Assembly (NCBI RefSeq): GCF_003334785.1
Contig: NZ_QOWV01000008.1
DNA: 64,000 nucleotides
Reading direction: 5' to 3' (one strand)
Source: Escherichia coli
Lineage (GTDB): Bacteria; Pseudomonadota; Gammaproteobacteria; Enterobacterales; Enterobacteriaceae
In this document: piece after piece, positions 9,668 to 57,214 of the stretch
Layout of the letters: each line of letters starts with the position of its first letter
How positions within the stretch are numbered: position 1 is the first letter of the stretch
Made by a program: the position numbers and the translations under genes
The notes under the pieces: model-generated
Database searches by the model: none
Seen by the model: the letters and a program-made list of their open reading frames with translations, nothing else
What the model was told of the DNA's origin: nothing

Positions 9668-10000
9668 TCAGTTATCAGGCATTCTGGCCGGTGGAATAAC
9701 CGCATTGGTGGCTTGCGCGTTGGCTTCGCTTTTTTCAACGCGCGAGCGCACCGAGCTGTCTTTGCGGAACACATCCCACGGCAGTAAAAGCGTGTCCATC
9801 ACAGCGGTAAACGGCATATCGAGAATCGCCAGCGACTTAGTGCCCCAGTTGGTTTCATCGTCGCCAATCATGGTTGCGCTGGCGCGGGTGCCGGGATACG
9901 TTCCTTCTTTCCCTCCGGTATGGGACATCACGCTGGAGCATCCTCCGAGTAATGTCATTCCGCTGCATATCATGAACGCTAACAACACATTTCTTATCAT
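9668..10000 (-). CDS. yidQ: Putative lipoprotein YidQ
   Basis: ORF 9668..10075; internal start MIRNVLLAFMICSGMTLLGGC with lipobox; 110 aa. Confidence 0.7.
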   Translation of the reverse strand: MIRNVLLAFMICSGMTLLGGCSSVMSHTGGKEGTYPGTRASATMIGDDETNWGTKSLAILDMPFTAVMDTLLLPWDVFRKDSSVRSRVEKSEANAQATNAVIPPARMPDN

Positions 10001-10174
10001 AATAAATTCATCTGTTGATCGTGGGTGTTGGCCTGATGAGTTATAGCGATCCCTTGCTGAAAATAACATCATCATTACGTCGCACTGTGGCGGCTATCGC
10101 ACTTTAACGTTTCGTGCTGCCCCCTCAGTCTATGCAATAGACCATAAACTGCAAAAAAAAGTCCGCTGATAAGG

Positions 10175-10204
10175 CTTGAAAAGTTCATTTCCAGACCCAT
10201 TTTT
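10175..10204 (+). promoter_or_regulatory. sigma32 heat-shock promoter of ibpAB
   Basis: -35 cttgaaa and -10 cccatttt with 14-nt spacer, about 100 nt upstream of ibpA. Confidence 0.6.
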
Positions 10205-10305
10205 ACATCGTAGCCGATGAGGACGCGCCTGATGGGTGTTCTGGCTACCTGACCTGTCCATTGTGGAAGGTCTTACATTCTCGCTGATTTCAGGAGCTAT
10301 TGATT

Positions 10306-10719
10306 ATGCGTAACTTTGATTTATCCCCGCTTTACCGTTCTGCTATTGGATTTGACCGTTTGTTTAACCACTTAGAAAACAACCAGAGCCAGAGTAATGG
10401 CGGCTACCCTCCGTATAACGTTGAACTGGTAGACGAAAACCATTACCGCATTGCTATCGCTGTGGCTGGTTTTGCTGAGAGCGAACTGGAAATTACCGCC
10501 CAGGATAATCTGCTGGTGGTGAAAGGTGCTCACGCCGACGAACAAAAAGAGCGCACCTATCTGTACCAGGGCATCGCTGAACGCAACTTTGAACGCAAAT
10601 TCCAGTTAGCTGAGAACATTCATGTTCGTGGTGCTAACCTGGTAAATGGTTTGCTGTATATCGATCTCGAACGCGTGATTCCGGAAGCGAAAAAACCGCG
10701 CCGTATCGAAATCAACTAA
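10306..10719 (+). CDS. ibpA: Small heat shock protein IbpA
   Basis: 137-aa alpha-crystallin-type s[22 protein letters not shown]... Confidence 0.95.
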
Positions 10720-10830
10720 TTCCCTAAGGCCGCCTGGCGCGGCCTGACATCTCCATGCTCGCCGTCAGGGAGCATATGCGAATCTTCGGATTTGCAGGTA
10801 CTTACTCGCTTCTTAGAAGGAGAAATGACT

Positions 10831-11259
10831 ATGCGTAACTTCGATTTATCCCCACTGATGCGTCAATGGATCGGTTTTGACAAACTGGCCAACGCACTGC
10901 AAAACGCCGGTGAAAGCCAGAGCTTCCCGCCGTACAACATTGAGAAAAGCGACGATAACCACTACCGCATTACCCTTGCGCTGGCAGGTTTCCGTCAGGA
11001 AGATTTAGAGATTCAACTGGAAGGTACGCGCCTGAGCGTAAAAGGCACGCCGGAGCAGCCAAAAGAAGAGAAAAAATGGCTGCATCAAGGGCTTATGAAT
11101 CAGCCATTTAGCCTGAGCTTTACGCTGGCTGAAAATATGGAAGTCTCTGGCGCAACCTTCGTAAACGGTTTACTGCATATTGATTTAATTCGTAATGAGC
11201 CTGAACCCATCGCAGCGCAGCGTATCGCTATCAGCGAACGTCCCGCGTTAAATAGCTAA
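10831..11259 (+). CDS. ibpB: Small heat shock protein IbpB
   Basis: 142-aa paralogue [19 protein letters not shown]... directly after ibpA. Confidence 0.95.
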
Positions 11260-11274
11260 CTAGCTATTCTCTTT

Positions 11275-11302
11275 GCCCCGCCATTCTGGTGGGGCTTTTT
11301 TT
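11275..11302 (+). terminator. Rho-independent terminator of ibpAB
   Basis: gccccgcca..tggtggggc hairpin followed by T8. Confidence 0.6.
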
Positions 11303-11454
11303 GTCTTACTTACTCAACAATGCGTTAAATTTCGACTGTTTAAGATATTTCGGCACGTTCTTTCCCGTGATAATGTGCGCTATAAGGCAAATCTGCTTCA
11401 CCGATTCAGCCATAATCCGTAGCAATTAAAATGTTATCTCAAGAGAAATGGACG

Positions 11455-13116
11455 ATGAGTGATATAGCATTAACGGTCAGTATTCTGGCTTTGGTGGCAG
11501 TCGTCGGTTTGTTTATCGGCAACGTCAAATTTCGCGGCATAGGATTAGGTATTGGCGGCGTGCTGTTTGGTGGGATCATCGTCGGCCATTTTGTTTCTCA
11601 GGCGGGGATGACATTAAGTAGCGATATGCTGCATGTTATTCAGGAATTTGGCCTGATCCTGTTCGTTTATACTATCGGGATTCAGGTAGGGCCGGGCTTC
11701 TTTGCCTCATTGCGCGTCTCCGGATTACGCCTCAACCTGTTTGCTGTTCTGATCGTCATCATCGGTGGTCTGGTTACCGCCATCCTGCATAAACTGTTTG
11801 ATATTCCACTGCCGGTAGTGCTGGGGATTTTCTCCGGTGCGGTTACCAATACGCCAGCGCTGGGGGCAGGGCAGCAGATTTTGCGCGACCTGGGTACACC
11901 AATGGAAATGGTCGATCAGATGGGGATGAGTTACGCGATGGCGTATCCATTCGGCATTTGCGGGATTTTGTTCACCATGTGGATGTTGCGGGTTATTTTC
12001 CGCGTCAATGTCGAGACAGAAGCTCAGCAGCACGAGTCTTCACGCACCAATGGCGGCGCGCTGATCAAGACTATCAATATTCGCGTTGAGAACCCTAACC
12101 TGCATGATTTAGCCATTAAAGATGTACCGATTCTCAACGGCGACAAAATTATCTGCTCGCGTCTGAAACGCGAAGAAACCCTAAAAGTTCCTTCGCCAGA
12201 TACCATTATCCAACTGGGCGATTTGCTGCATCTGGTGGGTCAGCCAGCGGATTTACATAATGCGCAACTGGTGATTGGTCAGGAGGTCGATACTTCGCTG
12301 TCCACGAAAGGCACTGATTTGCGCGTCGAGCGTGTGGTGGTCACCAATGAAAACGTGCTCGGAAAACGTATTCGCGACCTGCACTTTAAAGAACGCTATG
12401 ACGTTGTTATCTCGCGCCTGAACCGTGCCGGGGTCGAACTGGTCGCCAGTGGCGATATCAGCCTGCAGTTCGGCGATATCCTCAATCTGGTGGGGCGTCC
12501 GTCCGCAATTGATGCCGTTGCCAATGTGCTGGGGAATGCGCAGCAAAAACTGCAACAGGTTCAGATGCTGCCAGTGTTTATTGGCATCGGGCTAGGCGTA
12601 TTGTTAGGTTCTATTCCCGTCTTTGTGCCAGGATTCCCGGCCGCGTTGAAACTGGGGCTGGCGGGCGGACCGCTGATTATGGCGTTGATCCTCGGGCGTA
12701 TCGGCAGTATCGGCAAGCTGTACTGGTTTATGCCGCCAAGCGCCAACCTCGCGCTGCGGGAGCTGGGGATCGTGCTGTTCCTCTCGGTCGTTGGTCTGAA
12801 ATCTGGTGGGGATTTTGTGAATACCCTGGTCAATGGCGAAGGGCTAAGCTGGATTGGTTATGGTGCCCTGATCACCGCCGTTCCGCTGATTACTGTTGGC
12901 ATTCTGGCGCGGATGTTAGCCAAAATGAATTACCTGACCATGTGCGGGATGCTGGCAGGTTCCATGACCGATCCTCCGGCGCTGGCGTTTGCTAATAATC
13001 TTCATCCAACCAGCGGTGCGGCGGCGCTCTCTTACGCCACTGTCTATCCGTTGGTAATGTTCCTGCGCATTATCACCCCCCAATTACTGGCGGTGCTCTT
13101 CTGGAGTATCGGTTAA
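11455..13116 (+). CDS. yidE: Putative transporter YidE (AAE family, twin TrkA-C domains)
   Basis: ORF 11431..13116; start [14 protein letters not shown]...; 553 aa. Confidence 0.85.
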
Positions 13117-17611: not shown

Positions 17612-19564
17612 ATGAATTCGTTACAAATCTTGAGTTTTGTCGGTTTTACGCTGCTGGTGGCGGTGATCACCTGGTGGAAGGTCCGCAAAACAGATACCGG
17701 ATCGCAACAAGGCTATTTTCTTGCCGGACGTTCACTAAAAGCGCCGGTTATTGCCGCTTCGTTAATGCTAACCAACCTTTCCACGGAACAACTGGTCGGC
17801 CTTTCCGGGCAGGCCTACAAAAGCGGCATGTCGGTGATGGGCTGGGAAGTGACTTCAGCGGTGACGCTGATCTTCCTCGCGCTAATCTTTTTACCGCGCT
17901 ATCTGAAGCGCGGCATTGCCACCATCCCCGATTTTCTGGAGGAACGTTATGATAAAACGACGCGTATTATCATCGACTTCTGCTTCCTAATTGCCACCGG
18001 CGTCTGCTTTCTGCCGATTGTTCTCTACTCCGGCGCGTTGGCGCTCAACAGCCTGTTTCACGTCGGGGAATCGCTACAGATTTCTCACGGTGCGGCTATC
18101 TGGCTACTGGTAATTTTGCTTGGTCTGGCGGGAATTTTGTATGCGGTGATCGGCGGACTGCGCGCAATGGCAGTGGCGGACTCCATCAACGGTATTGGGC
18201 TGGTTATCGGCGGGTTGATGGTGCCGGTATTTGGCCTGATCGCGATGGGCAAGGGCAGCTTTATGCAGGGCATTGAGCAACTCACCACCGTTCACGCCGA
18301 GAAATTAAACTCAATCGGTGGCCCGACCGATCCCTTGCCGATTGGCGCGGCATTTACCGGTTTGATTCTGGTGAACACCTTTTACTGGTGTACAAATCAG
18401 GGCATCGTGCAACGCACGCTGGCGTCAAAAAGCCTGGCGGAAGGGCAAAAGGGGGCGCTGTTAACGGCGGTGCTGAAAATGCTCGACCCGCTGGTACTGG
18501 TGCTGCCAGGGTTGATTGCGTTTCATCTGTATCAGGATTTACCGAAAGCCGACATGGCCTACCCGACGCTGGTCAATAACGTTCTGCCAGTGCCAATGGT
18601 GGGTTTCTTCGGCGCGGTGTTATTTGGTGCGGTGATCAGTACCTTCAACGGCTTTCTGAATAGCGCCAGTACGTTATTCAGTATGGGTATTTACCGTCGC
18701 ATCATTAACCAGAATGCCGAGCCGCAGCAGCTGGTCACCGTCGGGCGCAAATTTGGTTTCTTTATCGCTATCGTTTCGGTGCTGGTCGCGCCGTGGATCG
18801 CCAACGCGCCGCAGGGGCTGTATAGCTGGATGAAACAGCTCAACGGCATTTACAACGTGCCGCTGGTTACCATCATCATTATGGGCTTTTTCTTCCCGCG
18901 CATCCCGGCGCTGGCGGCAAAAGTAGCGATGGGGATTGGCATAATCAGCTACATCACCATCAACTATCTGGTGAAGTTCGACTTCCATTTCCTCTATGTG
19001 CTGGCCTGTACGTTCTGCATCAACGTGGTCGTGATGCTGGTGATCGGTTTTATCAAACCGCGCGCCACGCCGTTCACCTTCAAAGATGCGTTTGCGGTGG
19101 ACATGAAACCGTGGAAAAACGTCAAGATCGCGTCAATTGGCATCCTGTTCGCGATGATTGGCGTCTATGCCGGGCTGGCTGAATTCGGCGGCTACGGTAC
19201 GCGCTGGTTAGCGATGATCAGTTATTTCATTGCCGCCGTAGTGATTGTCTACCTGATTTTTGACAGCTGGCGGCGGAAGGTATTCGCTTTAATTCCGCCT
19301 ACACCTGTTCACCGGTTTGTACGCCTGCACGGGCCGGACTATTTACCGGTATCTACGCTAACCAGTCCGGCCCGTGGACCAACAACGTCGCGCCAGGCAA
19401 AAACATCTCCACTATGGGGCGCTACTTTAAGGATGCCGGCTATCACACCTGTTACATCGGCAAATGGCATCTCGACGGTCATGACTATTTCGGCACTGGC
19501 GAGTGTCCGCCGGAGTGGGACGCTGATTACTGGTTCGATGGGGCGAACTATCTTAGCGAACTGA
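17612..19564 (+). CDS. yidK: SSS-family solute:sodium symporter YidK with aberrant 3' extension into the yidJ region
   Basis: 650-aa ORF; first ~550 aa are a typical SSS membrane protein, the tail is an out-of-frame reading of the sulfatase gene. Confidence 0.7.
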   Translation: MNSLQILSFVGFTLLVAVITWWKVRKTDTGSQQGYFLAGRSLKAPVIAASLMLTNLSTEQLVGLSGQAYKSGMSVMGWEVTSAVTLIFLALIFLPRYLKRGIATIPDFLEERYDKTTRIIIDFCFLIATGVCFLPIVLYSGALALNSLFHVGESLQISHGAAIWLLVILLGLAGILYAVIGGLRAMAVADSINGIGLVIGGLMVPVFGLIAMGKGSFMQGIEQLTTVHAEKLNSIGGPTDPLPIGAAFTGLILVNTFYWCTNQGIVQRTLASKSLAEGQKGALLTAVLKMLDPLVLVLPGLIAFHLYQDLPKADMAYPTLVNNVLPVPMVGFFGAVLFGAVISTFNGFLNSASTLFSMGIYRRIINQNAEPQQLVTVGRKFGFFIAIVSVLVAPWIANAPQGLYSWMKQLNGIYNVPLVTIIIMGFFFPRIPALAAKVAMGIGIISYITINYLVKFDFHFLYVLACTFCINVVVMLVIGFIKPRATPFTFKDAFAVDMKPWKNVKIASIGILFAMIGVYAGLAEFGGYGTRWLAMISYFIAAVVIVYLIFDSWRRKVFALIPPTPVHRFVRLHGPDYLPVSTLTSPARGPTTSRQAKTSPLWGATLRMPAITPVTSANGISTVMTISALASVRRSGTLITGSMGRTILAN

Positions 19565-41273: not shown

Positions 41274-41401
41274 AAAATTGACATATAACAATTTGATTCC
41301 AATCGTTTATATTTATCAGCTCTAATTCATTTATACACATCCTTATACACATAATATCTGTCGATTAATTTTTACACGTATCTTCACGCACGTTAACTCA
41401 G

Positions 41402-41695
41402 GAAAAAAATTTTTTTTCGAAAGAACTGTTCACACTGTTCACCTTTCTGTTTTCTCCTTTTATTTCAGTTTGATAGGTGGTGAATAATGGGTGAAGGGTG
41501 AACATTCGATTCTTCACCTCCGGCATTCTGCCGGTGTGACTTGTGCAGGGGATTAATCCTCCGCACTGAAATCACACAGGGAGAAAAAAGTTTTTTTGAT
41601 TTGATTGTTCATCTTTCGTTTTTCTCTTTTAATTTCAGTGTGATAACGGGTGAATATACGGTGAAGGGTGAACAGTGGATTGTTCACTTTCGGGG
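41402..41695. repeat. crr-like region: two imperfect ~120-bp direct repeats with TGTTCAC motifs
   Basis: Units at about 41402..41522 and 41579..41695 share tgttcac / gggtgaa / ggtgaagggtgaaca blocks. Confidence 0.6.
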
Positions 41696-41703
41696 AATTC
41701 AGG

Positions 41704-41731
41704 GATAAAAAAAGACCGGCAGATGCCGGTC
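41704..41731 (-). terminator. Rho-independent terminator after alpha
   Basis: gaccggcagatgccggtc hairpin with U-run on the minus strand. Confidence 0.6.
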
Positions 41732-41738
41732 AGATGAG

Positions 41739-44072
41739 TCAGGCTGTTGCAGGGTCGTCACATTTCGGCAGCCAGTCGCCGTAGCTTTCCTCTTTCAGCG
41801 TCAGGTTGGTCTGTATCCCCTGTTTGGTATGGCGCTTCTCGTAATTCAGTCCGTATTCCTTCAGCATCACCGGCAGCCCCAGCCCGAACATTTTCAGACT
41901 GAGTACATTCCGGTAGCCGTTTGCCTCCATGTAGGCCAGATAGGCGTGATAGAGGTATTTACGGTAATTACGCGGGATGATACTGGCGTTCCCCATATAC
42001 ATGCCGCTGGTCTGCGGCAGGGTTTCCAGATAGCCGATAAAATCAAACGTCGGGTCGGCATCCCGTTTGATGTTCAGTGCCTCGTCTGAGTTCTGCTGGG
42101 ACTGAAGCAGTGACCGGGCGAGCATCGGGTCGCTGAACTTCTGCATCAGGTAACGCACGATGACCGCCAGCTCGCGGGTGATTTTGTCCTTAAGCTGCGG
42201 GTCGCGCTCCTGCGGGGCTATCTGTTCCGGGAAGTGAATAATCACCCGCCGGCGTGACACGCCGCCGCTGCGGTCGGTGAAGCGCATCGGGTTATTGTTC
42301 ACGGCCAGAATCACCGCCGGGATGTGCGTGGAGTACGCATCCCGGTATTTCGGGTCAACGGACACCGCATCGCCGCCGGTGATGGCCTTGAGTCCGGCAC
42401 CGTCGCCGCTCCATTTTTCCTGGTCCGGCAGGCGTATCAGTGAGAAGCCAGTTAACGCGGCACGTTCACGCGGGGATTCCAGCGTCTCGATGGTGGCCGA
42501 CGTGGCGTTATCCTCACCGGCCAGCAGGGTGGCTATTTCGGCCATGATACTTTTGCCGCTGCCGCCGGGACCGGTCACCTCCAGAAAGAGCTGCCAGTCG
42601 TAGCGGTTTGCCAGCACCATAAACAGTGCGGCCAGAATCACGTCGCGTTTTTCCGCACGGCCACCGGCGGCACGGTCAAGCCAGCGCCAGAATGCGGGGG
42701 CGTGGGTTTCCAGCGTTTCACCTTCCACCGGCGGGGTGAAATCCACATCGCACAGGGCGCGCATCCAGTGTGACGGACTGTGCGGGTGGAACGTGCCGTT
42801 CTGCGTGTCGAGCACGCCGTTACGAAAGCCAATCAGGCGGCGGGAGGGGGCTTCCTGCTGCGGAATAATCAGCTTCAGGGTGTCCACCACGGAGGCCACC
42901 TTCCCGGAGGAGAACGGCGCGCGCAGACGCTGAAACAGCCCGGCCACATCCCGGGCAAAGTCCTGTGGTGGCAGCACCTTCCAGACACCATTTTCATAGC
43001 GGGACAGAAGCTGGCCGTTGGCATCGACCGCGAGCGCCTCGCCGTAATGCTCATAGATACGCATGGCCTTTTCGCTGGTACTCATGGCGGAAAACTCCGC
43101 TTCGCTCATGGTGTCGAACGGGCTTTCAGCCGGTGGCCGGATGGCATCATAAATGGCCTTACGGGTGGTTTCCCCGCCGTACTGCGTGAAGGCATCATTC
43201 CAGTCACCGAAGACCGGCGGCAGGGCAACAACGCCCTCACACGCATCTGCGGCTGCGGCGGCTTTTTTCTGGCCGTCACCGCTGAGGTCACGGTCTGCGG
43301 CAAGGACAATCTGACAGGCCGGATGCTTCTGCCGGGCAAGGCTGGCCAGAGAAAGGAGGTTCACGGAAGAAAGCGCCACCATCACCGTTTCACCGGTCAG
43401 GTGATGTACGGTAAGTGCGGTCGCGTATCCCTCCGCTATCCACAGACGTTTTCCGGCCTGATTCTGTCCTTCAAGGGTGTGACAGGTGCCCCTGACCTGT
43501 CCGCCTTTCAGGGTGCGCTTACGGCCGTCAGCACTGATTAACTGAAGGTTAACCAGTTCGCCGCTGTCGTCATACAGTGGCACCACAAGGTCACCGGCGC
43601 GCCAGCTCACGCCACCGGCTCTGTGTGTGCCGGTCAGCATCCGGCATTCCCGGCCGGGAAAGCCCTTGCGGGTCAGGTAGGCGTTACCGGTTCCGGGACG
43701 GGTTTTCGCCATCAGGGTTTGTGCCAGTGCGGCGGCGTTCTTCCGGGCGGCTTCTGTTTCAGCACCGGCGGCGGCCGTCACTGCCGGGTCAGCCGGGGGC
43801 AGGCAGCCGGTCACGGCAGCCACCTTTGCGGCCGCGTCGGACGGGGAAACACCAAACACCTTTTCAACCAGTTTCAGGCCGTCACCGGCACCACACTGAT
43901 TGCAGTACCAGGTGCCGCGCCCCTCCCTGTCATCAAAACGGAAACGGTCACTTCCGCCACAGACCGGACAGGGCTGATGACGGTTTTTCAGCACCTGAAT
44001 CCCCAGCGACGGGAGAATACGCGGCCAGTGGCCGAGCGCATGGCTGACGGTGGCGGTTACGTTCATTTTCAT
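41739..44072 (-). CDS. P4 alpha-type primase-helicase
   Basis: 777-aa ORF; N-terminal zinc-ribbon CPVCGG..CNQCG, Walker A GPGGSGKS. Confidence 0.9.
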   Translation of the reverse strand: MKMNVTATVSHALGHWPRILPSLGIQVLKNRHQPCPVCGGSDRFRFDDREGRGTWYCNQCGAGDGLKLVEKVFGVSPSDAAAKVAAVTGCLPPADPAVTAAAGAETEAARKNAAALAQTLMAKTRPGTGNAYLTRKGFPGRECRMLTGTHRAGGVSWRAGDLVVPLYDDSGELVNLQLISADGRKRTLKGGQVRGTCHTLEGQNQAGKRLWIAEGYATALTVHHLTGETVMVALSSVNLLSLASLARQKHPACQIVLAADRDLSGDGQKKAAAAADACEGVVALPPVFGDWNDAFTQYGGETTRKAIYDAIRPPAESPFDTMSEAEFSAMSTSEKAMRIYEHYGEALAVDANGQLLSRYENGVWKVLPPQDFARDVAGLFQRLRAPFSSGKVASVVDTLKLIIPQQEAPSRRLIGFRNGVLDTQNGTFHPHSPSHWMRALCDVDFTPPVEGETLETHAPAFWRWLDRAAGGRAEKRDVILAALFMVLANRYDWQLFLEVTGPGGSGKSIMAEIATLLAGEDNATSATIETLESPRERAALTGFSLIRLPDQEKWSGDGAGLKAITGGDAVSVDPKYRDAYSTHIPAVILAVNNNPMRFTDRSGGVSRRRVIIHFPEQIAPQERDPQLKDKITRELAVIVRYLMQKFSDPMLARSLLQSQQNSDEALNIKRDADPTFDFIGYLETLPQTSGMYMGNASIIPRNYRKYLYHAYLAYMEANGYRNVLSLKMFGLGLPVMLKEYGLNYEKRHTKQGIQTNLTLKEESYGDWLPKCDDPATA

Positions 44073-44086
44073 GGTGTTGTTCTCCT

Positions 44087-44407
44087 TCAGTGCAGTACCG
44101 GCGCTTTTATGTGACGGGCACAGAGTTCATCCATCACAACCAGCCCGAGAAAGGACAGCGACGGCGCGGCCTTCAGGGGGCCGGATTCCATTAAATCTTC
44201 CAGCAGGGCACAGGCTATCTGACGCCCTTTTTCCTCACCGTGCTGGCGCAGATAAAAGCCTTCCAGCTCAGCGGCGATGGCCGCCTCCAGTGACTCAAGG
44301 GTGAGATGCGGGTAGCGGTGCTGACGTTCGCACACGGTCAGCCAGGCACAGGCGACAGCGCGACGGTAAAGGGCAGCGCGTAAGACGGGCGGTAAGGGGG
44401 TTTTCAT
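44087..44407 (-). CDS. Hypothetical protein, P4 left-operon position (orf106-like)
   Basis: 106-aa ORF immediately upstream of alpha, same strand. Confidence 0.5.
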
Positions 44408-44542
44408 TTGTTTTCCTCCCTGTGACAGATGACTGCATTCCGTGCCGGTTGCATTAACTGATAAGGCATATCTGCGTCTCCTGAAGACGTGCGTATCCCT
44501 GCGCGAATACGCACATTTAATTTTTCGGGTGTCGTTTTTTAA

Positions 44543-44998
44543 TTACAGATAATTGCGGTAACTGTTATCCGGGGTGATTTCCGGGTCAGGCTCCGTGCGG
44601 GGAATTTCCCGCCATTCCCGCGCCACCGGTGCCGCCCGGCTGACCGGAACAGGGTCCTGCGGGTAAATATCCAGATATTTCTCCCGCCATTTCTGTAATT
44701 CCGGGTCTCCGGCCATTTCTTTCAGTACCGCATGCCGGTTTACGGGGCTGCGTTTAAACAGGTCAGGACGGTCACAGGTAAATTCCCGCAGAAAACGCCC
44801 CAGCGGGATGTCTGTGGTGCGCCCGTCGGCGATGATACGCACAAGGATACTGAATTTACGGCGGTACGGGTTCCAGACAATTTCCGGGCAGCGGTACGGC
44901 ATTTCCCACGGAATACCGTCTTCCAGAATGCCGACCACGGCCACATCGGGAAAACCGGCAGAACGGTAAATCTCACCGGGCTGGGGAAAATCAAACAT
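44543..44998 (-). CDS. Hypothetical protein, P4 left-operon position (orf151-like)
   Basis: 151-aa ORF co-oriented with alpha. Confidence 0.5.
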   Translation of the reverse strand: MFDFPQPGEIYRSAGFPDVAVVGILEDGIPWEMPYRCPEIVWNPYRRKFSILVRIIADGRTTDIPLGRFLREFTCDRPDLFKRSPVNRHAVLKEMAGDPELQKWREKYLDIYPQDPVPVSRAAPVAREWREIPRTEPDPEITPDNSYRNYL

Positions 44999-45857
44999 GC
45001 GTCCTGTCTCCCCGGTCTTTCTGCTGGGCGAGAAAATCGCGGCACAGGCCTTTGGCTTTCAGCTCATTCAGCACAAAATCAATATCTTCATTCAGGTAAC
45101 TGAAAATATGCGGAATGTAGAGCTGATGCAGGCCGGAGAGTTCACGGTGAATCAAATCACCCCCAACAAACTGGGATACGGCGCTGGCGCGGTTGAGCTT
45201 ATGGTAAGCCTCAATGCTGAGGTGTTCACGGGCGTCATGACGCGCTGAGACGGTCTGAGGGGCTTTTTTATTACGCACGGGACACCTCCACCACCGGCAG
45301 ACGGGCAGCAAGGGAGAGCACATAGTCACGGACAAGGGAACGGCGGGCGCTGCGTTCATCACCGGCGACGGTGCGAAGCATACAGATACGGGGATGACGG
45401 TCTGTGCGACGGACAGCCGCAAACACAAAGACAAATTCAGGGTGTGAGGGGGTAAGGGTTGTAGCCATGATGGCAGCCTCCTGTGAATAGCAAATAACGC
45501 TATCGCCGGAGTTCTCACGCTCGATGGCGATAGCCCAGACGGGGGTGAGAATACCGGCTTCACAGGATACCGGCCAGCCCGGAGGCTGCCCCGCCTGAGC
45601 TACCATTGACTCAGAGGCATAACATGCGATTGCGAACAGGATCATACCTGCACGGCAAACCACACGCCACACCATAATCTGGTGCTCTGTGGCGTTGATT
45701 GCGACACAAAAAAAGACGCATGGCGCGTCATATGTCGCCTGTGAATTGCTCGGGTTCTCACGCCCGGCTGCCGATTTTGCGGCAGCGGAAAAACTATATC
45801 CGCAAATGCCGGAAAAAGGCAAGCCAGAAAAAGGGAGTTTTTGCAGAGCGGGCATCA

Positions 45858-46124
45858 TCATGCGTCGTACCCCCGTTTGCGTCCGGCAATGCGTCCGGCC
45901 ATCCATGCGGTGACTTCAGAGTGCAGCCAGGCCACATTTTTACCGCCAAGACTCACCTGCGGCGGAAATTCCCCCTTACGGATGAGTTCGTAGATGGTCG
46001 AGCGTGACAGGCCGCACAGGTGCATCACTTCCGGAAGACGTAAAAAACGCTCCTGTGTGATGTCCGGCAGCGGCATCAGTGGCGTCACAGGGGCGGGAGA
46101 CGGGGAAGAAAAAACAGCTTGCAT
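45858..46124 (-). CDS. AlpA/Vis-family small DNA-binding regulator
   Basis: 88-aa ORF with HTH-like [16 protein letters not shown]. Confidence 0.65.
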
Positions 46125-46403
46125 CGGGCTACCTCGTTAATGTCCATACAGCACCGGATAAGTCCGTCCGGCTTCAGGTAGCGCTTTATTTTGTGAATAT
46201 TTTCAGCAGACGCAACAGGGGGGATTTGTTCCGGCAGCCTTACAATGCTTGTGTATTTTTTGTTCATCTCCACTTAAAGTCATTTAAAGCCACTTAAAGC
46301 AATTCGTAATTTTTATAGTGAAATACAAATCGTTTTTTCTTATTCATTCCCGGCGAATTAATAAAAACAAACAGTAATAAACAGCACAAAAAGCCCATCA
46401 ACG

Positions 46404-46508
46404 GGTGAACAGTGGTGAACAGACGGTGAACAGTCATTACTGCGATTGTTCACCCTTTAACTTACTGTATTACTTATCTTTTTTCTTATGGTGAACAGAG
46501 GTGAACAG
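46404..46508. repeat. ori-like iteron cluster (GGTGAACAG octamer copies)
   Basis: Five direct copies of ggtgaacag plus one inverted ttgttcacc within about 105 bp, between divergent vis and sid. Confidence 0.6.
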
Positions 46509-46676
46509 TAAAATATAAAAAAACAAACAGTAAGCCGGTTTTTCCTACGACCTTTTCCTGGCTTGCCGGTGTGAGGATGAGTCTCCTGTGTCAGGGCTGG
46601 CACATCTGCAATGCGTCGTGTTGTTGTCCGGTGTACGTCACAATTTTCTTAACCTGAAGTGACGAGGAGCCGGAAA

Positions 46677-47411
46677 ATGTCTGACAACACCATCCCTGAA
46701 TATCTGCAACCCGCACTGGCACAACTGGAAAAGGCCAGAGCCGCCCACCTTGAGAACGCCCGACTGATGGATGAGACCGTCACGGCCATTGAACGGGCAG
46801 AGCAGGAAAAAAATGCGCTGGCGCAGGCCGACGGAAATGACGCTGATGACTGGCGCACAGCCTTTCGTGCAGCCGGTGGTGTCCTGAGCGACGAGCTGAA
46901 ACAGCGCCACATTGAGCGCGTGGCACGCCGGGAGCTGGTACAGGAATATGACAATCTGGCCGTGGTGCTGAATTTTGAACGTGAACGCCTGAAAGGGGCG
47001 TGTGACAGCACGGCTACCGCCTACCGGAAGGCACATCATCACCTTCTGAGTCTGTATGCAGAGCATGAGCTGGAACACGCCCTGAATGAAACCTGTGAGG
47101 CGCTTGTCCGGGCAATGCATCTGAGCATTCTGGTACAGGAAAATCCGATCGCCAACACCACCGGCCATCAGGGCTACGTCGCACCCGATAAGGCTGTCAT
47201 GCAGCAGGTGAAATCATCGCTGGAACAGAAAATTAAACAGATGCAAATCAGCCTCAGCGGCGAGCCGGTTCTCCGGCTGACCGGACTGTCAGCGGCAACA
47301 CTTCCGCACATGGATTATGAGGTGGCAGGCACACCGGCACAGCGCAAGGTGTGGCAGGACAAAATAGACCAGCAGGGAGCAGAGCTTAAGGCCAGAGGAC
47401 TGCTGTCATGA
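46677..47411 (+). CDS. P4 Sid-like capsid size-determination scaffold
   Basis: ORF 46659..47411; ATG at 46677 preceded by gaggag RBS; 244 aa, coiled-coil-rich. Confidence 0.8.
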   Translation: MSDNTIPEYLQPALAQLEKARAAHLENARLMDETVTAIERAEQEKNALAQADGNDADDWRTAFRAAGGVLSDELKQRHIERVARRELVQEYDNLAVVLNFERERLKGACDSTATAYRKAHHHLLSLYAEHELEHALNETCEALVRAMHLSILVQENPIANTTGHQGYVAPDKAVMQQVKSSLEQKIKQMQISLSGEPVLRLTGLSAATLPHMDYEVAGTPAQRKVWQDKIDQQGAELKARGLLS

Positions 47412-47908
47412 TTTACTGCCCGTCGTGTGGACATGTTGCTCACACCCGCCGCGCACATTTTATGGACGATGGCACCAAGATAATGATTGCACAGTGCCGG
47501 AATATTTATTGCTCTGCGACATTTGAAGCGAGTGAAAGCTTTTTCTCTGACAGTAAAGATTCAGGAATGGAATACATTTCAGGCAAACAGAGATACCGCG
47601 ATTCACTGACGTCAGCCTCCGGTAGCATGAAGCGCCCGAAAAGAATGCTTGTTACCGGATATTGTTGTCGGAGATGTAAAGGCCTTGCACTGTCAAGAAC
47701 ATCGCGGCGTCTGTCTCAGGAAGTCACCGAGCGTTTTTATGTGTGCACGGATCCGGGCTGTGGTCTGGTGTTTAAAACGCTTCAGACCATCAACCGCTTC
47801 ATTGTCCGCCCGGTCACGCCGGACGAACTGGCAGAAAGCCTGCATGAAAAACAGGAACTGCCGCCAGTACGCTTAAAAACACAATCATATTCGCTGCGTC
47901 TGGAATGA
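47408..47908 (+). CDS. P4 Delta-like late transactivator (tandem Ogr-type zinc finger)
   Basis: 166-aa ORF with two CxxC..CxxC blocks (CPSCGH..CRNIYC and CRRCKG..CTDPGC). Confidence 0.8.
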   Translation: MIYCPSCGHVAHTRRAHFMDDGTKIMIAQCRNIYCSATFEASESFFSDSKDSGMEYISGKQRYRDSLTSASGSMKRPKRMLVTGYCCRRCKGLALSRTSRRLSQEVTERFYVCTDPGCGLVFKTLQTINRFIVRPVTPDELAESLHEKQELPPVRLKTQSYSLRLE

Positions 47909-47981
47909 GGGCTGCCGGTTAACACCGGCCGTCGCCGCACACCGTATTTTTATTCTTCAGCATGATGAGAAAGAGATAACG

Positions 47982-48554
47982 ATGGAAAGCACAGCCTTAC
48001 AGCAGGCCTTTGACACCTGTCAGAATAACAAAGCAGCATGGCTGCAACGCAAAAATGAGCTGGCTGCGGCCGAACAGGAATATCTGCGGCTTCTGTCAGG
48101 AGAAGGCAGAAACGTCAGTCGCCTGGACGAATTACGCAATATTATCGAAGTCAGAAAATGGCAGGTGAATCAGGCCGCCGGTCGTTATATTCGTTCGCAT
48201 GAAGCCGTTCAGCACATCAGCATCCGCGACCGGCTGAATGATTTTATGCAGCAGCACGGCACAGCACTGGCGGCGGCACTGGCACCGGAGCTGATGGGCT
48301 ACAGTGAGCTGACGGCCATTGCCCGAAACTGTGCCATACAGCGTGCCACAGATGCCCTGCGTGAAGCCCTTCTGTCCTGGCTTGCGAAGGGTGAAAAAAT
48401 TAATTATTCCGCACAGGATAGCGACATTTTAACGGCCATTGGATTCAGACCTGACGCGGCTTCGGTGGATGACAGCCGTGAAAAATTCACCCCTGCGCAG
48501 AACATGATTTTTTCGCGTAAAAGTGCGCAACTGGCATCACGTCAGTCTGTGTAA
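47982..48554 (+). CDS. P4 Psu-like polarity suppression / capsid decoration protein
   Basis: 190-aa ORF following delta. Confidence 0.8.
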   Translation: MESTALQQAFDTCQNNKAAWLQRKNELAAAEQEYLRLLSGEGRNVSRLDELRNIIEVRKWQVNQAAGRYIRSHEAVQHISIRDRLNDFMQQHGTALAAALAPELMGYSELTAIARNCAIQRATDALREALLSWLAKGEKINYSAQDSDILTAIGFRPDAASVDDSREKFTPAQNMIFSRKSAQLASRQSV

Positions 48555-48718
48555 AATTCCCCGAAAATCCGCCCGTTTTTACTGAAAAAAGCCATGCATC
48601 GATAAGGTGCATGGCTTTGCATGCGTTTTCCTGCCTCATTTTCTGCAGATCGCGCCACGCCCGGCGTGGCCTGAGCGTGTCAGCGCAACTGCATTAAAAC
48701 CATCCCACAAAGCGGGCG

Positions 48719-48737
48719 GGCGAGGCGGGGAAAGCAC
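48719..48737. other. cos site (P2/P4-type 19-nt cohesive end sequence)
   Basis: ggcgaggcggggaaagcac. Confidence 0.6.
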
Positions 48738-48979
48738 TGCGCGCTTACTTAGATGCGTGAATTTATTTATATCACTGAAGTATATCCCTAAGCTCATTTC
48801 TCAAAGGGCCTATGGTTGCACAAGGTTGTACCATGGCATTCAAAACTTTTTAAACCAAGAATGACAATTTCATTATTAGGCCGGAATAGTTACTAATTTT
48901 AGTATAGGTTGCGATTGTTTAACGCATTTTTTATTATGATGCAGATTTTATTATTACTAATGGGGTGCAAAAAACACGT

Positions 48980-50269
48980 ATGAAAAAAAATGTTGGTAAC
49001 CGCAATAAAAATTCTGATGTGCTTATTCTTAAAGGTATGTTGAACAATTTAAAAGATGGTTTAAATAATTTTGAATTATTGCTTAAATTGCAGTTTAAAA
49101 TATTGGTGTGCGTGATGAGATGTGAGCGGAAAATTAAGTTTCTTAAAAAGAATAATGCTCATTTAAGGTCGGTGTTAAAAAAATCAAGACTTCCAAAAGA
49201 AAAATCTCTGGCAGTAAAAGAAAAAATTAAATACAATTCTGAAGTAATTACTGCTGAAAAATTCAAGATATATACGTATAAAATGTTTGGCGATGCTGTT
49301 GCATTTTTATACATCGATAAATATACAATTAAACAGTTATACTACAATGTACATAATTACAATGTTAAAGAAACGTCGGGGGATTTGAGCGGTAAGTCTG
49401 GATTGCGAGAGGAATGGGAATGCGTAAAACTTGCATGTGATAATAAAGTTCCAGCTCTGTTGCATGATATTACAATGAGTATAAGGCATGGAGATGTATC
49501 ACTTTTAGGTAAAGATGAGCCATTTATTATTGAGATGAAATCAAGCTCAAATACAAATAAGAGAGTTGAGCGGCAAAAATCTAACCTTGAAAAATTAGGA
49601 AGTTTCATAGCAAAAGACGAAGCTGAAAATTTTCGAGGGATTCCATTGTTAATCAGGAAAAATTTGTTAACTGAAGAGGAATCATATTCTCAGGTTTTAA
49701 ATGAGTGTCTTAATGATTGTCGCAGCAAAGGAATGGCTTTGGTTGAAGCTGAAAAAGGATTTTATATCTGCGCAGTTAGAGAAGGGAATATGGCTTCTAT
49801 GCTAGAAAATATAGATTTTGATGAAAAAAAAGAAGTTTTTCCTGTATTTCTCAATCAATATAAAAATAATGGGGAGTGGCTACCATTAACACCATTTACA
49901 CTATTAATTAACGATCCTTACGATCTCCATGATTTTATCGAAGGGGAATTAACAATAGCTTGTTTTTTAATGCTCGATGAATACAAAAAAATTGCTATAG
50001 AACTAGGCTATGAATTAGTTTTTGTTTCTAATGATGAATATAGTATCTTGTTAAAAAGAATTGGTGAAGATATTATATTTGGTGTTTCCTGGCAAATGTT
50101 GTTAAGAGTTCCATTAGAGATGATGTCCATGTCATGGTTGATAAAAGAAAGTATTAATATATATAGTAACTCCCTAGAAAATAGCACCCATAATGATGAA
50201 TTAAATCAGGGGCAGGGAAATACTAAAAATTCATTATTCGAAAAATACAAGAATTTATTTTCTTACTAA
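48980..50269 (+). CDS. Hypothetical protein in satellite variable region; PD-(D/E)xK-like signature
   Basis: ORF 48965..50269 (GTG) or ATG at 48980; AT-rich; motif HGDVSLLGKDEPFIIEMK. Confidence 0.6.
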   Translation: MKKNVGNRNKNSDVLILKGMLNNLKDGLNNFELLLKLQFKILVCVMRCERKIKFLKKNNAHLRSVLKKSRLPKEKSLAVKEKIKYNSEVITAEKFKIYTYKMFGDAVAFLYIDKYTIKQLYYNVHNYNVKETSGDLSGKSGLREEWECVKLACDNKVPALLHDITMSIRHGDVSLLGKDEPFIIEMKSSSNTNKRVERQKSNLEKLGSFIAKDEAENFRGIPLLIRKNLLTEEESYSQVLNECLNDCRSKGMALVEAEKGFYICAVREGNMASMLENIDFDEKKEVFPVFLNQYKNNGEWLPLTPFTLLINDPYDLHDFIEGELTIACFLMLDEYKKIAIELGYELVFVSNDEYSILLKRIGEDIIFGVSWQMLLRVPLEMMSMSWLIKESINIYSNSLENSTHNDELNQGQGNTKNSLFEKYKNLFSY

Positions 50270-50301
50270 TTAAGCATTGTAATTATATTTGATTTTTTCT
50301 A

Positions 50302-50335
50302 CAGGCTTGGACGGAATCATATAGCTCCAAGCCTG
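50302..50335. terminator. Hairpin between the two convergent cargo ORFs
   Basis: Perfect 10-bp stem caggcttgga..tccaagcctg with 14-nt loop. Confidence 0.45.
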
Positions 50336-50370
50336 TTGTGTCGGTATCAAAAAGAAAGTGATATTATTGT

Positions 50371-51744
50371 TTATCTAATATATTTTGTTACTTCCATATT
50401 ATCTTCATCGTCAAAAGAGTACTCAACCATCATACGACTATTTTTACCTGACTTAATATCTTGAAGCCAAGCTGAGGCAACCCTAGGGTCTAAATGCTGT
50501 TTTCTACTCAGCTCATTATTTTTTAGCCTATCAAGCCTTATTGCTCTTTGAAGAGTTTTATCGATGTAGTCTTCCAAATCAATGGACAACCTCCTTTTTG
50601 GATATAAATATTGGTATTCATCACACAATAGTACTCCTGGTAATTTAATTTCGCGTAGGTCGAAAGAATACCAACTATAGTTTTTAGACTCATTAGCTAA
50701 TTCCGAAACTAGATGAGCCCCATTTTGTTGTAAGAGAGATATTTTGTGATCGATGCTAATGTCAGATATTTCTCTTAAAGACTCAAAATGCATGTTTTCG
50801 TAGATAGTATTTAATAAAATACTCTCCATGTAAGAGTAAAAATCAGTACCATCGATGATAATATTAGTTTCATTGTAGACTGCAAGAGACATAAGATATA
50901 TGAAGAAAACTGCGGGAGTACTATTACCTCTGTTTATATCAAGTCTAAGGGAGTTGACATAATCAGGCGGAGAGTTTGAGAAAATTTCTCTTATTAACCA
51001 GTCTGGAATAGTGGTTCTTGTTAGAATGTCAGCGTTCAAACTTGAACGACATAAAAAAATACACATCTTTAATTTTAATTTTATTGAAAATGATGGGAAT
51101 AAATGATCGATGAAAGATAAAATACATGTATACTCTGCTAAGTCTGTTTGTTGCAACTTTTCTTTTATTTCATTTTCAAGCATTTTTAATTTAAAAAAAT
51201 CATTCCTTTTTTCTAATATTTCCCAATGAAATAATTGCTCCTGAGCGTACGCATGCCCCTCTAAAATAGCTAGCATGCTTAAAGGAATGTTTAGGATTTC
51301 TTGATAATTATTAACATACCCAAAGAAATGGACTCTGATATACACACCCATATCGTCATCATATTGTAATGATGCTTTAATATTTTTATAATTTAATTTA
51401 TTAGTGCTGTTGTTTTTGAAGTGATAATGTAAAGTAATTTCAGTATCATCAACTAATAAATTATCAAAAGCCTCCTTTGTTTCATATTTAAAATAGTTAT
51501 ATAGCCGACATGAATAATTTAACCCCCAGTGAGTTGTAGAACAATCAAGTAAATGGATTGTTTCATGGAGATATGTTTTATAAAATTCAATTTCGCTATC
51601 ATCAAAATCATATATGCTTTTACTGTCTATGATATTTTGTGCTTGCGGTAAACTTATATTTAATTCATCGTTTGAAATCTCAATTAAATGTGATGAAAAA
51701 TCATAAGAACCCAATGTTTTGCTGTTAAATATACATCCGCTCAT
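50371..51744 (-). CDS. Hypothetical protein with HEXXH zinc-metallopeptidase motif, translationally coupled to int
   Basis: 457-aa AT-rich ORF; YLHETIHLLD at residues 58..67; start overlaps int stop as ATGA; agggga RBS. Confidence 0.65.
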   Translation of the reverse strand: MSGCIFNSKTLGSYDFSSHLIEISNDELNISLPQAQNIIDSKSIYDFDDSEIEFYKTYLHETIHLLDCSTTHWGLNYSCRLYNYFKYETKEAFDNLLVDDTEITLHYHFKNNSTNKLNYKNIKASLQYDDDMGVYIRVHFFGYVNNYQEILNIPLSMLAILEGHAYAQEQLFHWEILEKRNDFFKLKMLENEIKEKLQQTDLAEYTCILSFIDHLFPSFSIKLKLKMCIFLCRSSLNADILTRTTIPDWLIREIFSNSPPDYVNSLRLDINRGNSTPAVFFIYLMSLAVYNETNIIIDGTDFYSYMESILLNTIYENMHFESLREISDISIDHKISLLQQNGAHLVSELANESKNYSWYSFDLREIKLPGVLLCDEYQYLYPKRRLSIDLEDYIDKTLQRAIRLDRLKNNELSRKQHLDPRVASAWLQDIKSGKNSRMMVEYSFDDEDNMEVTKYIR

Positions 51745-52916
51745 AGCAAATCCCCTAAAAGATAATCAGAGTACCATTGAATCATCGTTTTCCTTTGAGA
51801 AAAATATTGTGCGTGATTATAGGTTCCTCGGATATTGTTCTTATCAACATGTGCTAATTGCATTTCAATCCAGGTACTATCAAATCCCTGTTCATGTAGG
51901 ATTGTTGACATTGTATGTCTAAAACCGTGACCTGTAGCACGTCCTTTGTAACCAAGTAACTCAATCACTTGTGAAACACTTTCTTTTGAAATTGGTTTGC
52001 TACGATTGTTCCTGCCAATAAAAATATAGGGATAATGGCCGGTGATAGGCTTTAGCTGTTTAAAGAGGTCTACCACCTGAGTAGACAAAGGTACAATATG
52101 TGGTCTGCGCATTTTCATACGTTCCGCTGGTATCTCCCATATACCTTTTTCGAGGTCTACTTCTTCCCACGTAGCAAAGCGCATCTCCTGCGTTCTTACA
52201 CCAGTCAGCATGACTATCTTCGTAGCATTTTTGGTGATGATGCTACCGGTATAAGCTTCGAGATCCCGAATAAAATGAGGCAATTCTTCGGCAGATAGAA
52301 ATGGATGATGTTTTTGCTTAGGAACGGCCAGAGCGATGGCTAAATCAGGCGCAGGATTGTATTCAGCGCGGCCAGTTATGATTGCGTAGCGATAAACCTC
52401 ACCGCACCTCTGACGTACCTTACGTGTTTTCTCTAGTGCTCCACGCTTCTCTATTCGTCGCAACACTTCAAGAAGTTCTAAGGGTTTGATTTCACTAATA
52501 GGACGTTTACCAATGAACGGGAAAACATCTTGCTCAAATGTTTTAATAATTTCTTCGCGGTAGGCAAGTGTCCAGCGATCGGCTTTATTTGAGTGCCACT
52601 CACGACATATAGCCTCGAATGAGTTTTCTGTTGAGAGCTGCTGTGCCAGCTTTTGGGCTTTACGTTCTTCCACTGGGTCTATGCCGTTTGCAACCTGCTT
52701 CCGAGCTGTATCGCGTTTCTCACGTGCTTCAGCTAGGCTCACAAGGTCGTAGCTACCAAATGACATTAACCGCGCTTTTCCGGCAAAGCGGAAACGGAAA
52801 CGCCAGCCCTTCGAGCCATCGGGATTGATAAGCAATGACAGGCCCTGCCCGTCGTTCAATGTGTATGGCTTGTCTTGGGGCTTTGCTCGTTTGATTTGTA
52901 TATCTGTAAGTGCCAT
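51741..52916 (-). CDS. int: P4-type tyrosine integrase
   Basis: 391-aa ORF with C-terminal catalytic-type residues (GHGFRHT.., ..NHAQY); adjacent to tRNA 3' end. Confidence 0.9.
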   Translation of the reverse strand: MALTDIQIKRAKPQDKPYTLNDGQGLSLLINPDGSKGWRFRFRFAGKARLMSFGSYDLVSLAEAREKRDTARKQVANGIDPVEERKAQKLAQQLSTENSFEAICREWHSNKADRWTLAYREEIIKTFEQDVFPFIGKRPISEIKPLELLEVLRRIEKRGALEKTRKVRQRCGEVYRYAIITGRAEYNPAPDLAIALAVPKQKHHPFLSAEELPHFIRDLEAYTGSIITKNATKIVMLTGVRTQEMRFATWEEVDLEKGIWEIPAERMKMRRPHIVPLSTQVVDLFKQLKPITGHYPYIFIGRNNRSKPISKESVSQVIELLGYKGRATGHGFRHTMSTILHEQGFDSTWIEMQLAHVDKNNIRGTYNHAQYFSQRKTMIQWYSDYLLGDLL

Positions 52917-53077
52917 GTGTATAAGCCAAAAATATGTATAAAAAATCTATACACATCACTATACATATTTTTCATGGATTCAGGGAGATCTTGTCGGACG
53001 GTTACGGATGAGTGATTTACTATATGTTTTGAAAATAAAGGATTTTTAGACTCTCTCGGATGGTGACGGAAGAATTT

Positions 53078-53172
53078 TGGCGGAAGATCACAGGAGTCGA
53101 ACCTGCCCGGGACCGCTGGCGGCCCCAACTGGATTTGAAGTCCAGCCGCCTCACCGGAGACGACGATCTTCC
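53078..53172 (-). tRNA. selC: tRNA-Sec (selenocysteine)
   Basis: Minus strand reads GGAAGATCGTCGTCTCCGGTGAGGCGGCTGGACTTCAAATCCAGTTGGGGCCGCCAGCGGTCCCGGGCAGGTTCGACTCCTGTGATCTTCCGCCA. Confidence 0.85.
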
Positions 53173-53464
53173 GCGCCTCGATTGCTACATGGAGGCGGGG
53201 CGCATTATAGCTACTTCCTTGAGTTTCTACATCCCCCAGATCAGTTTTTTCCGCCTAATACACGCAGCGTATTATCACGAAAGCATTATAGTTCATATAA
53301 AATCCATATTTTACAATGATATATGAGCGGAATTAACGCTACCACGATCACATAAAACAAGAATCATAAATTAATAACCAGATATCGGAATATTCGCTCT
53401 CACAGGGATGGTTTACAAAATGCGTTATCGGTCTCAGCACCCCTATAGCATCAAGGAAAAGTAG

Positions 53465-54847: not shown

Positions 54848-54856
54848 GGAACGGCA

Positions 54857-57175: not shown

Positions 57176-57191
57176 TCTATTGATGGAATGC

Positions 57192-57214
57192 CGGGTACGT
57201 CTGAGTCGTACCCG
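57192..57214. terminator. Hairpin between convergent yicI and yicH
   Basis: cgggtacg..cgtacccg inverted repeat. Confidence 0.5.

Follow-up and report, generated by a model that had tools for sequence, protein, structure and literature searches.

The ibpAB control region of Escherichia coli: a sigma-32 promoter and a ROSE-like thermometer leader

The DNA analysed here, called the window throughout, is a stretch of 64,000 nucleotides from an Escherichia coli genome (contig NZ_QOWV01000008.1). The part under study is the ibpAB control region, which lies between the divergently oriented genes yidQ (upstream) and ibpA. The two genes of the operon and their terminator, downstream of which yidE is found, are placed as follows.

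10306 to 10719, plus strand: ibpA coding sequence, 137 aa, with its ATG at 10306
10831 to 11259, plus strand: ibpB coding sequence, 142 aa, second gene of the operon
11275 to 11295, plus strand: ibpAB intrinsic terminator, a 9-bp GC-rich stem followed by TTTTTTT

An earlier note on this DNA, made from the letters of the sequence, had named the downstream gene ibpA and had proposed alignment to K-12 as a check. RefSeq annotation gives the same gene name, and the segment from 9828 to 11428 is identical to that of K-12 MG1655, with 0 differences over 1601 bases. Of 5426 complete E. coli genomes, 5420 carry the 1.4-kb ibpAB locus, in one copy each, and RefSeq annotates it there with ibpA, ibpB and a ROSE feature; ibpA itself is annotated as a small heat shock chaperone. 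The IbpA protein encoded here carries Arg93 and a C-terminal IEI motif. The region is almost certainly the native control region of the ibpAB small-heat-shock operon, composed of a sigma-32 promoter and a ROSE thermometer leader, and no finding speaks against this identification. Both the promoter and the leader of ibpA have been described before, and in this genome they are real, intact and ordinary.

The promoter is made up of the elements given below, the last of which is a putative start site derived from the geometry of the dnaK P1 promoter.

10153 to 10160, plus strand: run of eight A, at -57 to -50 relative to the +1, which from its sequence may be an UP-element-like tract
10175 to 10181, plus strand: sigma-32 -35 element CTTGAAA, a consensus match that is conserved and unique in the window
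10195 to 10203, plus strand: sigma-32 -10 element ACCCATTTT (consensus CCCCATNT; dnaK P1 CCCCATTTA)
10210, plus strand: putative +1 (G), K-12 coordinate 3867518, placed to within about 3 nt on either side

The motif reported in the earlier note, CTTGAAA followed after 14 nt by the -10 motif CCCATTTT, is present exactly as written, at 10175-10181 and 10196-10203; the 14-nt spacer AGTTCATTTCCAGA occupies 10182-10195. In the scaffold used for the structure of the sigma-32 open complex, dnaK P1 has CTTGAA at -35 to -30, then 14 nt, then CCCCATTTA at -15 to -7, with its +1 six nt past the -10 9-mer (PMC10216364). The ibpA promoter fits this geometry without any shift (CTTGAA at 10175-10180, 14 nt, ACCCATTTT at 10195-10203). 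Its -10 9-mer is identical to that of dnaK P1 at 7 of 9 positions, the first base being A and not C and the last T and not A, and its C-rich form, CCCATTT, recurs in dnaK P1 and in other sigma-32 promoters. Going by sequence, both elements, the CTTGAAA -35 box and the C-rich -10 box at the right distance from it, are those of a sigma-32 promoter.

For comparison we assembled 80 ibpA loci from different Enterobacteriaceae species and aligned their leaders with MAFFT. The -35 box reads CTTGAAA in 77 of the 80 species and CTTGATA in the other 3, and the spacer is 14 nt long in 79 of them. Within the -10 box, A10199 and T10202 are found in all 80 species and C10196-C10198 in 66-72, while the positions flanking the boxes vary freely. 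The sigma-32 assignment made in the earlier note thus stands on consensus boxes, dnaK P1 geometry and conservation. Among the same orthologues the AAAGTC that flanks the run of A is partly conserved as well (T10162, for example, in 70 of 80).

With G10210 as the +1, the leader runs from 10210 to 10305 and is 96 nt long, in keeping with the length of about 100 nt claimed earlier. A '96-nt ROSE-like RNAT' is quoted for ibpA in a review (PMC6096418). The span of 10170-10305 given for promoter and leader together was right at its end, which is the last base before the ATG at 10306, and wrong at its start, which falls 5 nt upstream of the -35 box at 10175. The 5' end of the first leader hairpin bears on the start site too. 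In 36 of 80 orthologues, which form the largest group, the lower stem of this hairpin starts 6-7 nt after the -10 box, and it occurs there in compensatory variants (GUAGCC/GGCUAC, GUGUCC/GGGCAC, GUAACC/GGUUAC and CAGAGCC/GGUUCUG). Since the lower stem covaries, its bases should be transcribed, G10210 included. Taken together, the dnaK P1 geometry, the covariation of the lower stem and the quoted length of 96 nt lead us to infer a +1 at or very near G10210. One published detail points to a slightly different number. Thermosensing was lost on deletion of a residue named 'G71' (PMC2896394, citing Waldminghaus 2005), which is probably the bulged G10283 of the third hairpin; this equation would put the +1 at 10213 and not at 10210.

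Could the promoter match be a chance occurrence or a sigma-70 site, with the real transcription coming from elsewhere upstream? A match to a consensus is by itself no proof of function, and the 5' end used here is a deduced one. Still, the pattern CTTGAAA-N13-15-CCCATNT has 1 match on both strands of the 64-kb window against 0.01 expected from dinucleotide shuffles, and the boxes and their spacing are nearly invariant in 80 species amid variable flanks. A consensus scan of 9900-11500 found no sigma-70-like promoter. Transcription from farther upstream is opposed by the divergent orientation of yidQ and by the covariation of hairpin I, which begins 6-7 nt after the -10 box. Because the match is both unique and conserved, we exclude a chance or sigma-70 promoter, a reading that we hold to be very improbable, and keep the sigma-32 promoter as the source of the leader.

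The leader is predicted to fold into three hairpins, the last of which contains the Shine-Dalgarno (SD) sequence. Its features are these.

10210 to 10248, plus strand: hairpin I, stable, -18.5 kcal/mol at 37 °C
10251 to 10272, plus strand: hairpin II, stable, -9.0 kcal/mol at 37 °C, with bulged G10256 and the core CCUGUCC/GGAAGG
10280 to 10296, plus strand: hairpin III, the thermolabile SD hairpin CUC[G]CUG-AUUU-CAGGAG, -4.1 kcal/mol at 37 °C
10281 to 10285, plus strand: ROSE signature U(U/C)GCU, here UCGCU, with bulged G10283; pairs with AGGAG
10292 to 10296, plus strand: Shine-Dalgarno sequence AGGAG, 9 nt before the ATG
10240 to 10312, plus strand: match to Rfam ROSE_2 (RF01832), covering hairpins II and III and the start codon

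For 10207-10308 the minimum free energy (MFE) structure and the centroid structure are the same, namely the three hairpins, at -34.4 kcal/mol. The z-score of the leader against shuffled sequences is modest (-2.0). The structured leader claimed earlier is thus borne out, and the published SL1-SL3 model of the leader matches the three predicted hairpins. Hairpin I ends in an apical module with a bulged G10227 and with C10228-C10229 paired with G10234-G10235. G10283 is unpaired in every fold. The ibpA start codon lies outside the MFE pairs, with a probability of being unpaired of 0.40-0.97 per base at 37 °C. Folding the leader together with 30 nt of coding sequence slightly alters the pairs around the SD in the MFE structure at 25-30 °C, and the SD is still paired. 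A published title on the ibpA thermometer speaks of 'stable and unstable elements', a wording that fits the energies of hairpins I and II as against hairpin III.

The earlier note described the ibpA leader as a ROSE-type RNA thermometer without folding it, and this identification is confirmed by several lines of evidence. The Rfam model ROSE_2 scores 100.4 bits, with a gathering score of 65 and E = 3e-23, over its full length (1-73 of 73), and it adds two outer pairs to hairpin III, which then reaches 10276-10302. The RefSeq ROSE feature has the same coordinates as the Rfam match, 10240-10312. The family is defined by a U(U/C)GCU motif, a bulged G and imperfect pairing with the SD (PMC3669281, PMC11342760), all of which are seen here in the pairing of UCGCU with AGGAG. 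Its members have two to four hairpins in the 5' UTR, with the SD in the 3'-proximal one and the AUG free, and typically precede the gene of a small heat-shock protein. By family score, motif, bulged G, an SD located in the third hairpin and a small heat-shock protein gene downstream, the leader belongs to the ROSE-like thermometers.

A long and structured leader might in principle be some other RNA element, such as an attenuator, a riboswitch, a small RNA or a gene for a leader peptide, and the list of open reading frames does mechanically start the ibpA frame at a TTG at 10300. That TTG, however, lacks conservation and stands at 3 nt from the SD, against 9 nt for the ATG. The leader has no terminator-like site, and ROSE_2 is the sole Rfam family at or above threshold in it on either strand; ROSE_3 reaches only 20.8 bits. 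An attenuator, a small RNA and an antisense element were rejected on these grounds, and we give other RNA elements as a class a negligible probability beside the ROSE-like thermometer.

The alignment of the 80 loci was used to ask which parts of the fold are kept. RNAalifold applied to the MAFFT alignment recovered upper hairpin I and hairpin III; indels in the alignment kept it from finding hairpin II and the lower stem of hairpin I. Explicit counting of pairs and folding of each sequence by itself were used in its place. The 23 proposed pairs are paired in 95.2% of cells, against 33-54% in controls in which the 3' partners were slid by 1-3 columns. Both partners changed in 9 pairs, which amounts to 119 cells; in the slid controls the number of such cells was 5-26. 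The SD-occluding hairpin, on which the earlier note had made its reading depend, forms in the present sequence and in 79 of 80 orthologues folded singly, and the three top-level hairpins form in 65-67 of the 80. The distance from the SD to the ATG is 7-10 nt in 80/80 orthologues and 9 nt in 51. In a set of 20 diverse orthologues, all of which retain hairpins II and III, 11 pass the ROSE_2 threshold, and the curated model is therefore narrower than the real distribution of the element.

The three hairpins differ in how they are conserved. In the upper stem of hairpin I, 7 of 9 pairs have both-side changes over the 80 species while the G-CC/GG apex is invariant. Hairpin II has compensatory change in two basal pairs only (AU 34, GC 34, GU 11). 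All 6 pairs of hairpin III are kept in 78-79 of 79 distinct sequences. Its UCGCU/AGGAG is essentially invariant in the 80 species, the exceptions being a single T at C10282 and a single T at G10293. No covariation was found in hairpin III among the 79 distinct sequences, as is to be expected of an invariant sequence, and support for its pairing therefore comes from conservation, the Rfam model and published probing only. Per-site entropy is 0.81 bits at four-fold synonymous sites of ibpA and 0.8-1.0 bits in the arms of hairpin I; it is 0.04 bits in the hairpin II core CCUGUCC and 0.046 bits in hairpin III. By the alignment, sequence and not shape alone is under constraint in the core of hairpin II and in the G-CC/GG apex of hairpin I, a point that is only mildly new.

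These patterns bear on the role of the first two hairpins. It could be argued that hairpins I and II are mere 5' stabilisers that protect the mRNA from decay and that hairpin III alone is regulatory. Hairpin I starts at the putative +1, is very stable at -18.5 kcal/mol and is preserved in shape although its sequence changes at the neutral rate, and the literature discusses stabilisation by the 5' hairpins of ROSE elements (PMC3669281). The core of hairpin II, on the other hand, is conserved in sequence as well as in shape, and published mutants of SL1 and SL2 alter translation and repression by IbpA. We consider a purely stabilising function of both hairpins quite unlikely.

Folding at 30 versus 42 °C had been proposed in the earlier note as a check on the thermometer. 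A computed loosening was seen; it is gradual, involves no structural switch, and does not set ibpA apart from 41 other genes. In folds of the full leader the SD has a mean probability of being unpaired of 0.084 at 25 °C and of 0.20 at 42 °C, a 2.4-fold increase, and opening the ribosome-binding site (RBS) costs 9.3 kcal/mol at the lower temperature and 5.6 kcal/mol at the higher. The MFE structure retains hairpin III up to 50 °C. The comparison of opening energies covered 43 K-12 genes of this chromosomal region. In the 41 other genes that served as control, the opening energy at 25 °C is 11.4 +/- 4.1, the ibpA value of 9.3 being lower, and the drop from 25 to 42 °C is 3.2 +/- 1.1, against 3.6 for ibpA, which is within one standard deviation. 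With both level and slope of ibpA being ordinary, we rejected two-temperature folding as a decisive test; by itself it neither validates nor rejects a thermometer, and the same verdict on folding has been given before (PMC2896394). Because folding does not single out the ibpA RBS, the case for thermosensing rests on published reporter, toeprinting and probing work with this sequence and related ones. The E. coli ibpA thermometer gives 4-fold induction between 25 and 42 °C (PMC3669281), and thermometers with the ROSE signature have been shown to act independently of IbpA, in 30S toeprinting as well as in heterologous reporters (PMC3669281, PMC11342760).

Deletion of the bulged G was also modeled. 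Removal of G10283 in silico turns hairpin III into a perfect 6-bp stem, changes its energy from -4.1 to -7.9 kcal/mol and lowers the probability of an unpaired SD at 42 °C about 20-fold, from 0.20 to 0.01. This modeled effect agrees with the published loss of thermosensing on deletion of 'G71'.

A mechanism that is consistent with these features can be outlined as follows. RNA polymerase carrying sigma-32 would bind CTTGAAA and ACCCATTTT and initiate at or near G10210 (sigma-32 dependence being taken from the literature), so that ibpA mRNA would appear chiefly when heat or protein-folding stress raises the level of sigma-32. The nascent leader would fold into the heat-stable hairpins I and II and the weak hairpin III. 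In hairpin III, UCGCU with its bulged G10283 would pair imperfectly with AGGAG and mask the SD, leaving the AUG largely open. Warming would fray this hairpin in a zipper-like manner and admit the 30S subunit, thermal induction again being known from the literature. Finally, oligomers of IbpA are reported to bind the leader and would repress translation until they are titrated away by aggregates. Control would thus be exerted on at least two levels, transcription and translation, with a third, feedback, reported in the literature.

The feedback has been studied with a sequence that is identical to the present one. For this K-12 sequence it was shown that IbpA binds to the 5' UTR of its own mRNA and that, in a purified system, translation is repressed; mutation of any of SL1-SL3 relieves the repression. 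Self-repression requires R93 and the IXI motif of the protein (PMC10474464, PMC10410725). What it requires is present here: R93, IEI and three intact predicted stem-loops.

Is the leader then mainly an operator for IbpA, that is, a sensor of aggregation, with melting in a secondary role? This explanation fits the data and overlaps the main one. It draws on the published binding, repression and SL1-SL3 mutant effects and on published induction at 30-37 °C when aggregates accumulate. The frozen hairpin II core and hairpin I apex speak for it as well (0.04 bits, against 0.81 bits at neutral sites), since thermodynamics alone needs no such freezing, and so does the computed melting, whose slope does not exceed that of ordinary genes. 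Against it, the ROSE signature is that of thermometers shown to work in reporters and toeprinting without IbpA, the E. coli element has its published 4-fold thermal induction, and IbpA is not known to have an RNA determinant. A candidate, the bulged-G motif considered below, is absent from rpoH mRNA. An operator function as the chief role is a possibility that deserves attention, though we lean away from it and retain a thermometer with reported IbpA feedback as our reading of the leader.

The hairpin II core raises a related question. A simple stabilising role does not account for the sequence constraint on this core and on the apex of hairpin I. The frozen core might mark a sequence-specific contact for IbpA oligomers in self-repression or a tertiary contact that positions hairpin III, so that hairpin II would be more than a passive stabiliser; we put forward this suggestion, drawn from conservation, with a good deal of doubt.

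The untranslated RNA of ibpAB (207 nt) contains 4 hairpins with a bulged G in the arrangement C[G]C opposite GG, whereas 0.087 would be expected from the density of such hairpins in the window. Two of them belong to the ibpA leader (the hairpin I apex and hairpin III); the other two lie between the genes, one a conserved hairpin at 10757-10773 and one the SD hairpin of ibpB at 10805-10822. The motif was defined post hoc, after these hairpins had been seen, and it is absent from rpoH mRNA, the third reported target of IbpA. For both reasons it was rejected as a general recognition motif for IbpA, and that it is an IbpA recognition module at all has a low probability. The enrichment is more simply explained by a duplication that copied the leader together with the gene and was followed by divergence, although in pairwise alignment the leaders of ibpA and ibpB are similar mainly around CUCGCU and the start codon.

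The leader of the second gene is described by one further feature.

10720 to 10830, plus strand: ibpA-ibpB intergenic leader, with a second ROSE-like SD hairpin, CUC[G]CUUC-UUA-GAAGGAG, at 10805-10822 (predicted fold)

This hairpin is conserved in 75 of the 81 sequences examined, and a thermometer of ibpB has been described in the literature (PMC6096418). A sigma-54 promoter for ibpB was looked for and found no support. The closest match, TGGTAAATGGTTTGCT at 10640-10655, differs by 3 mismatches, and sigma-54-like matches are no commoner than in shuffles (209 observed, 228 expected).

In the ibpA control region, sigma-32 transcription, an RNA thermometer and chaperone feedback combine in a textbook case of layered stress control. 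The identification itself brings no new biology, and its exact coordinates are now fixed. The sequence constraint on hairpin II offers a concrete place to seek a determinant of IbpA binding.

Several known systems may be compared with the leader. The rpoH mRNA is likewise controlled in translation by a structure that opens with heat and is also reported to be repressed by IbpA. In the rpoH thermometer, however, the 5' region pairs with coding sequence around the start codon, and there is no ROSE hairpin. The ROSE1 element of an alpha-proteobacterium follows the same logic as the ibpA leader, with a 3' hairpin in which U(U/C)GCU and a bulged G are imperfectly paired with the SD of a small heat-shock gene, and it likewise has stabilising hairpins ahead of the SD hairpin; ROSE1 has four hairpins, whereas the enterobacterial element has three and a separate Rfam model. 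The ibpA thermometers of Pseudomonas (PMC3669281) share with it the gene, the motif, the SD in the 3'-proximal hairpin, the unpaired AUG and a stable G+C-rich 5' hairpin that is unaffected by heat. Their leaders are 61-62 nt long with two hairpins, whereas that of E. coli has 96 nt and three, the extra hairpin II being conserved in sequence. With the ROSE-like thermometer of E. coli ibpA (RF01832; Waldminghaus et al. 2005, 2009) the present leader is one and the same element, and nothing differs but the numbering of 'G71'.

The family to which the ibpA leader belongs is under-called by the curated ROSE_2 model, the Rfam covariance model of the ROSE-type RNA thermometer. When 20 diverse Enterobacteriaceae ibpA leaders were scored with this Rfam model, nine fell below its gathering score (loci L013, L031, L036, L046, L049, L050, L052, L061 and L071), and in the alignment hairpins II and III are conserved in all nine.

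The position of the bulged G of hairpin III, G10283, depends on the transcription start that is assumed. It is +74 if +1 is G10210, the start that gives the UTR length of 96 nt quoted in a review (PMC6096418). The published name of the deletion that abolishes thermosensing in the ibpA leader is G71, which, if it denotes this bulged G, would place +1 at 10213 instead of 10210, a numbering discrepancy spanning 10210-10213.

A run of eight A residues (10153-10160) occupies -57 to -50 relative to the inferred +1, the position expected for a distal UP-element subsite, and the adjoining AAAGTC is partially conserved across genera. Within the ibpA coding region and upstream of ibpB, TGGTAAATGGTTTGCT (10640-10655) resembles a sigma-54 promoter, with three mismatches to the consensus and correct spacing of GG and GC; shuffled sequences yield matches this good at least as often. 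A sigma-54 promoter for ibpB has reportedly been described.

Compared with K-12, the window carries an apparent deletion of ~144 bp at 19260-19274 (K-12 coordinates 3858310-3858454), in or near yidJ/yidK, and an insertion of ~11.8 kb at 41277-53073, adjoining tRNA-Sec (selC). The insertion is a P4-like satellite prophage, and the features of this region are as follows.

41742-44072, P4-family primase
45274-45906, Icd-like protein
48965-50266, plus strand, large ORF of 434 aa
50374-51744, minus strand, large ORF of 457 aa
51744-52916, integrase
53078-53172, minus strand, tRNA-Sec (selC)

Neither large ORF has a match in NCBIfam or PADLOC. In P4-like satellites, defence cargo often sits where these two ORFs are placed. 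Identity to K-12 is 99.97% before the island and 98.9% after it (53074-61394, 92 mismatches in 8.3 kb), and this fall across the island suggests a recombination boundary there.

Three further hairpins were found between the ibpA and ibpB coding regions. Immediately 3' of the ibpA stop codon is a G+C-rich hairpin, GGCCGC...GCGGCC (10727-10745), which has no U-run and is kept in most orthologues; it does not qualify as a canonical terminator, and a role in processing or stability is possible. The second, at 10757-10773 (GCUC[G]CC-GUCA-GGGAGC), is strongly conserved and is followed by no start codon. It may be the remnant of a duplicated leader. The third is the ibpB Shine-Dalgarno (SD) hairpin at 10805-10822 (CUC[G]CUUC-UUA-GAAGGAG); the ibpB leader is already regarded in the literature as a thermometer. 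Despite its conservation in 75 of the 81 sequences examined, this hairpin was called by no ROSE model in the Rfam search. It shares the ROSE signature UCGCU with hairpin III of ibpA, its own bulged G being G10808, and the hairpin at 10757-10773 is similar to both in its bulged-G form, with an SD-like 3' arm (GGGAG).
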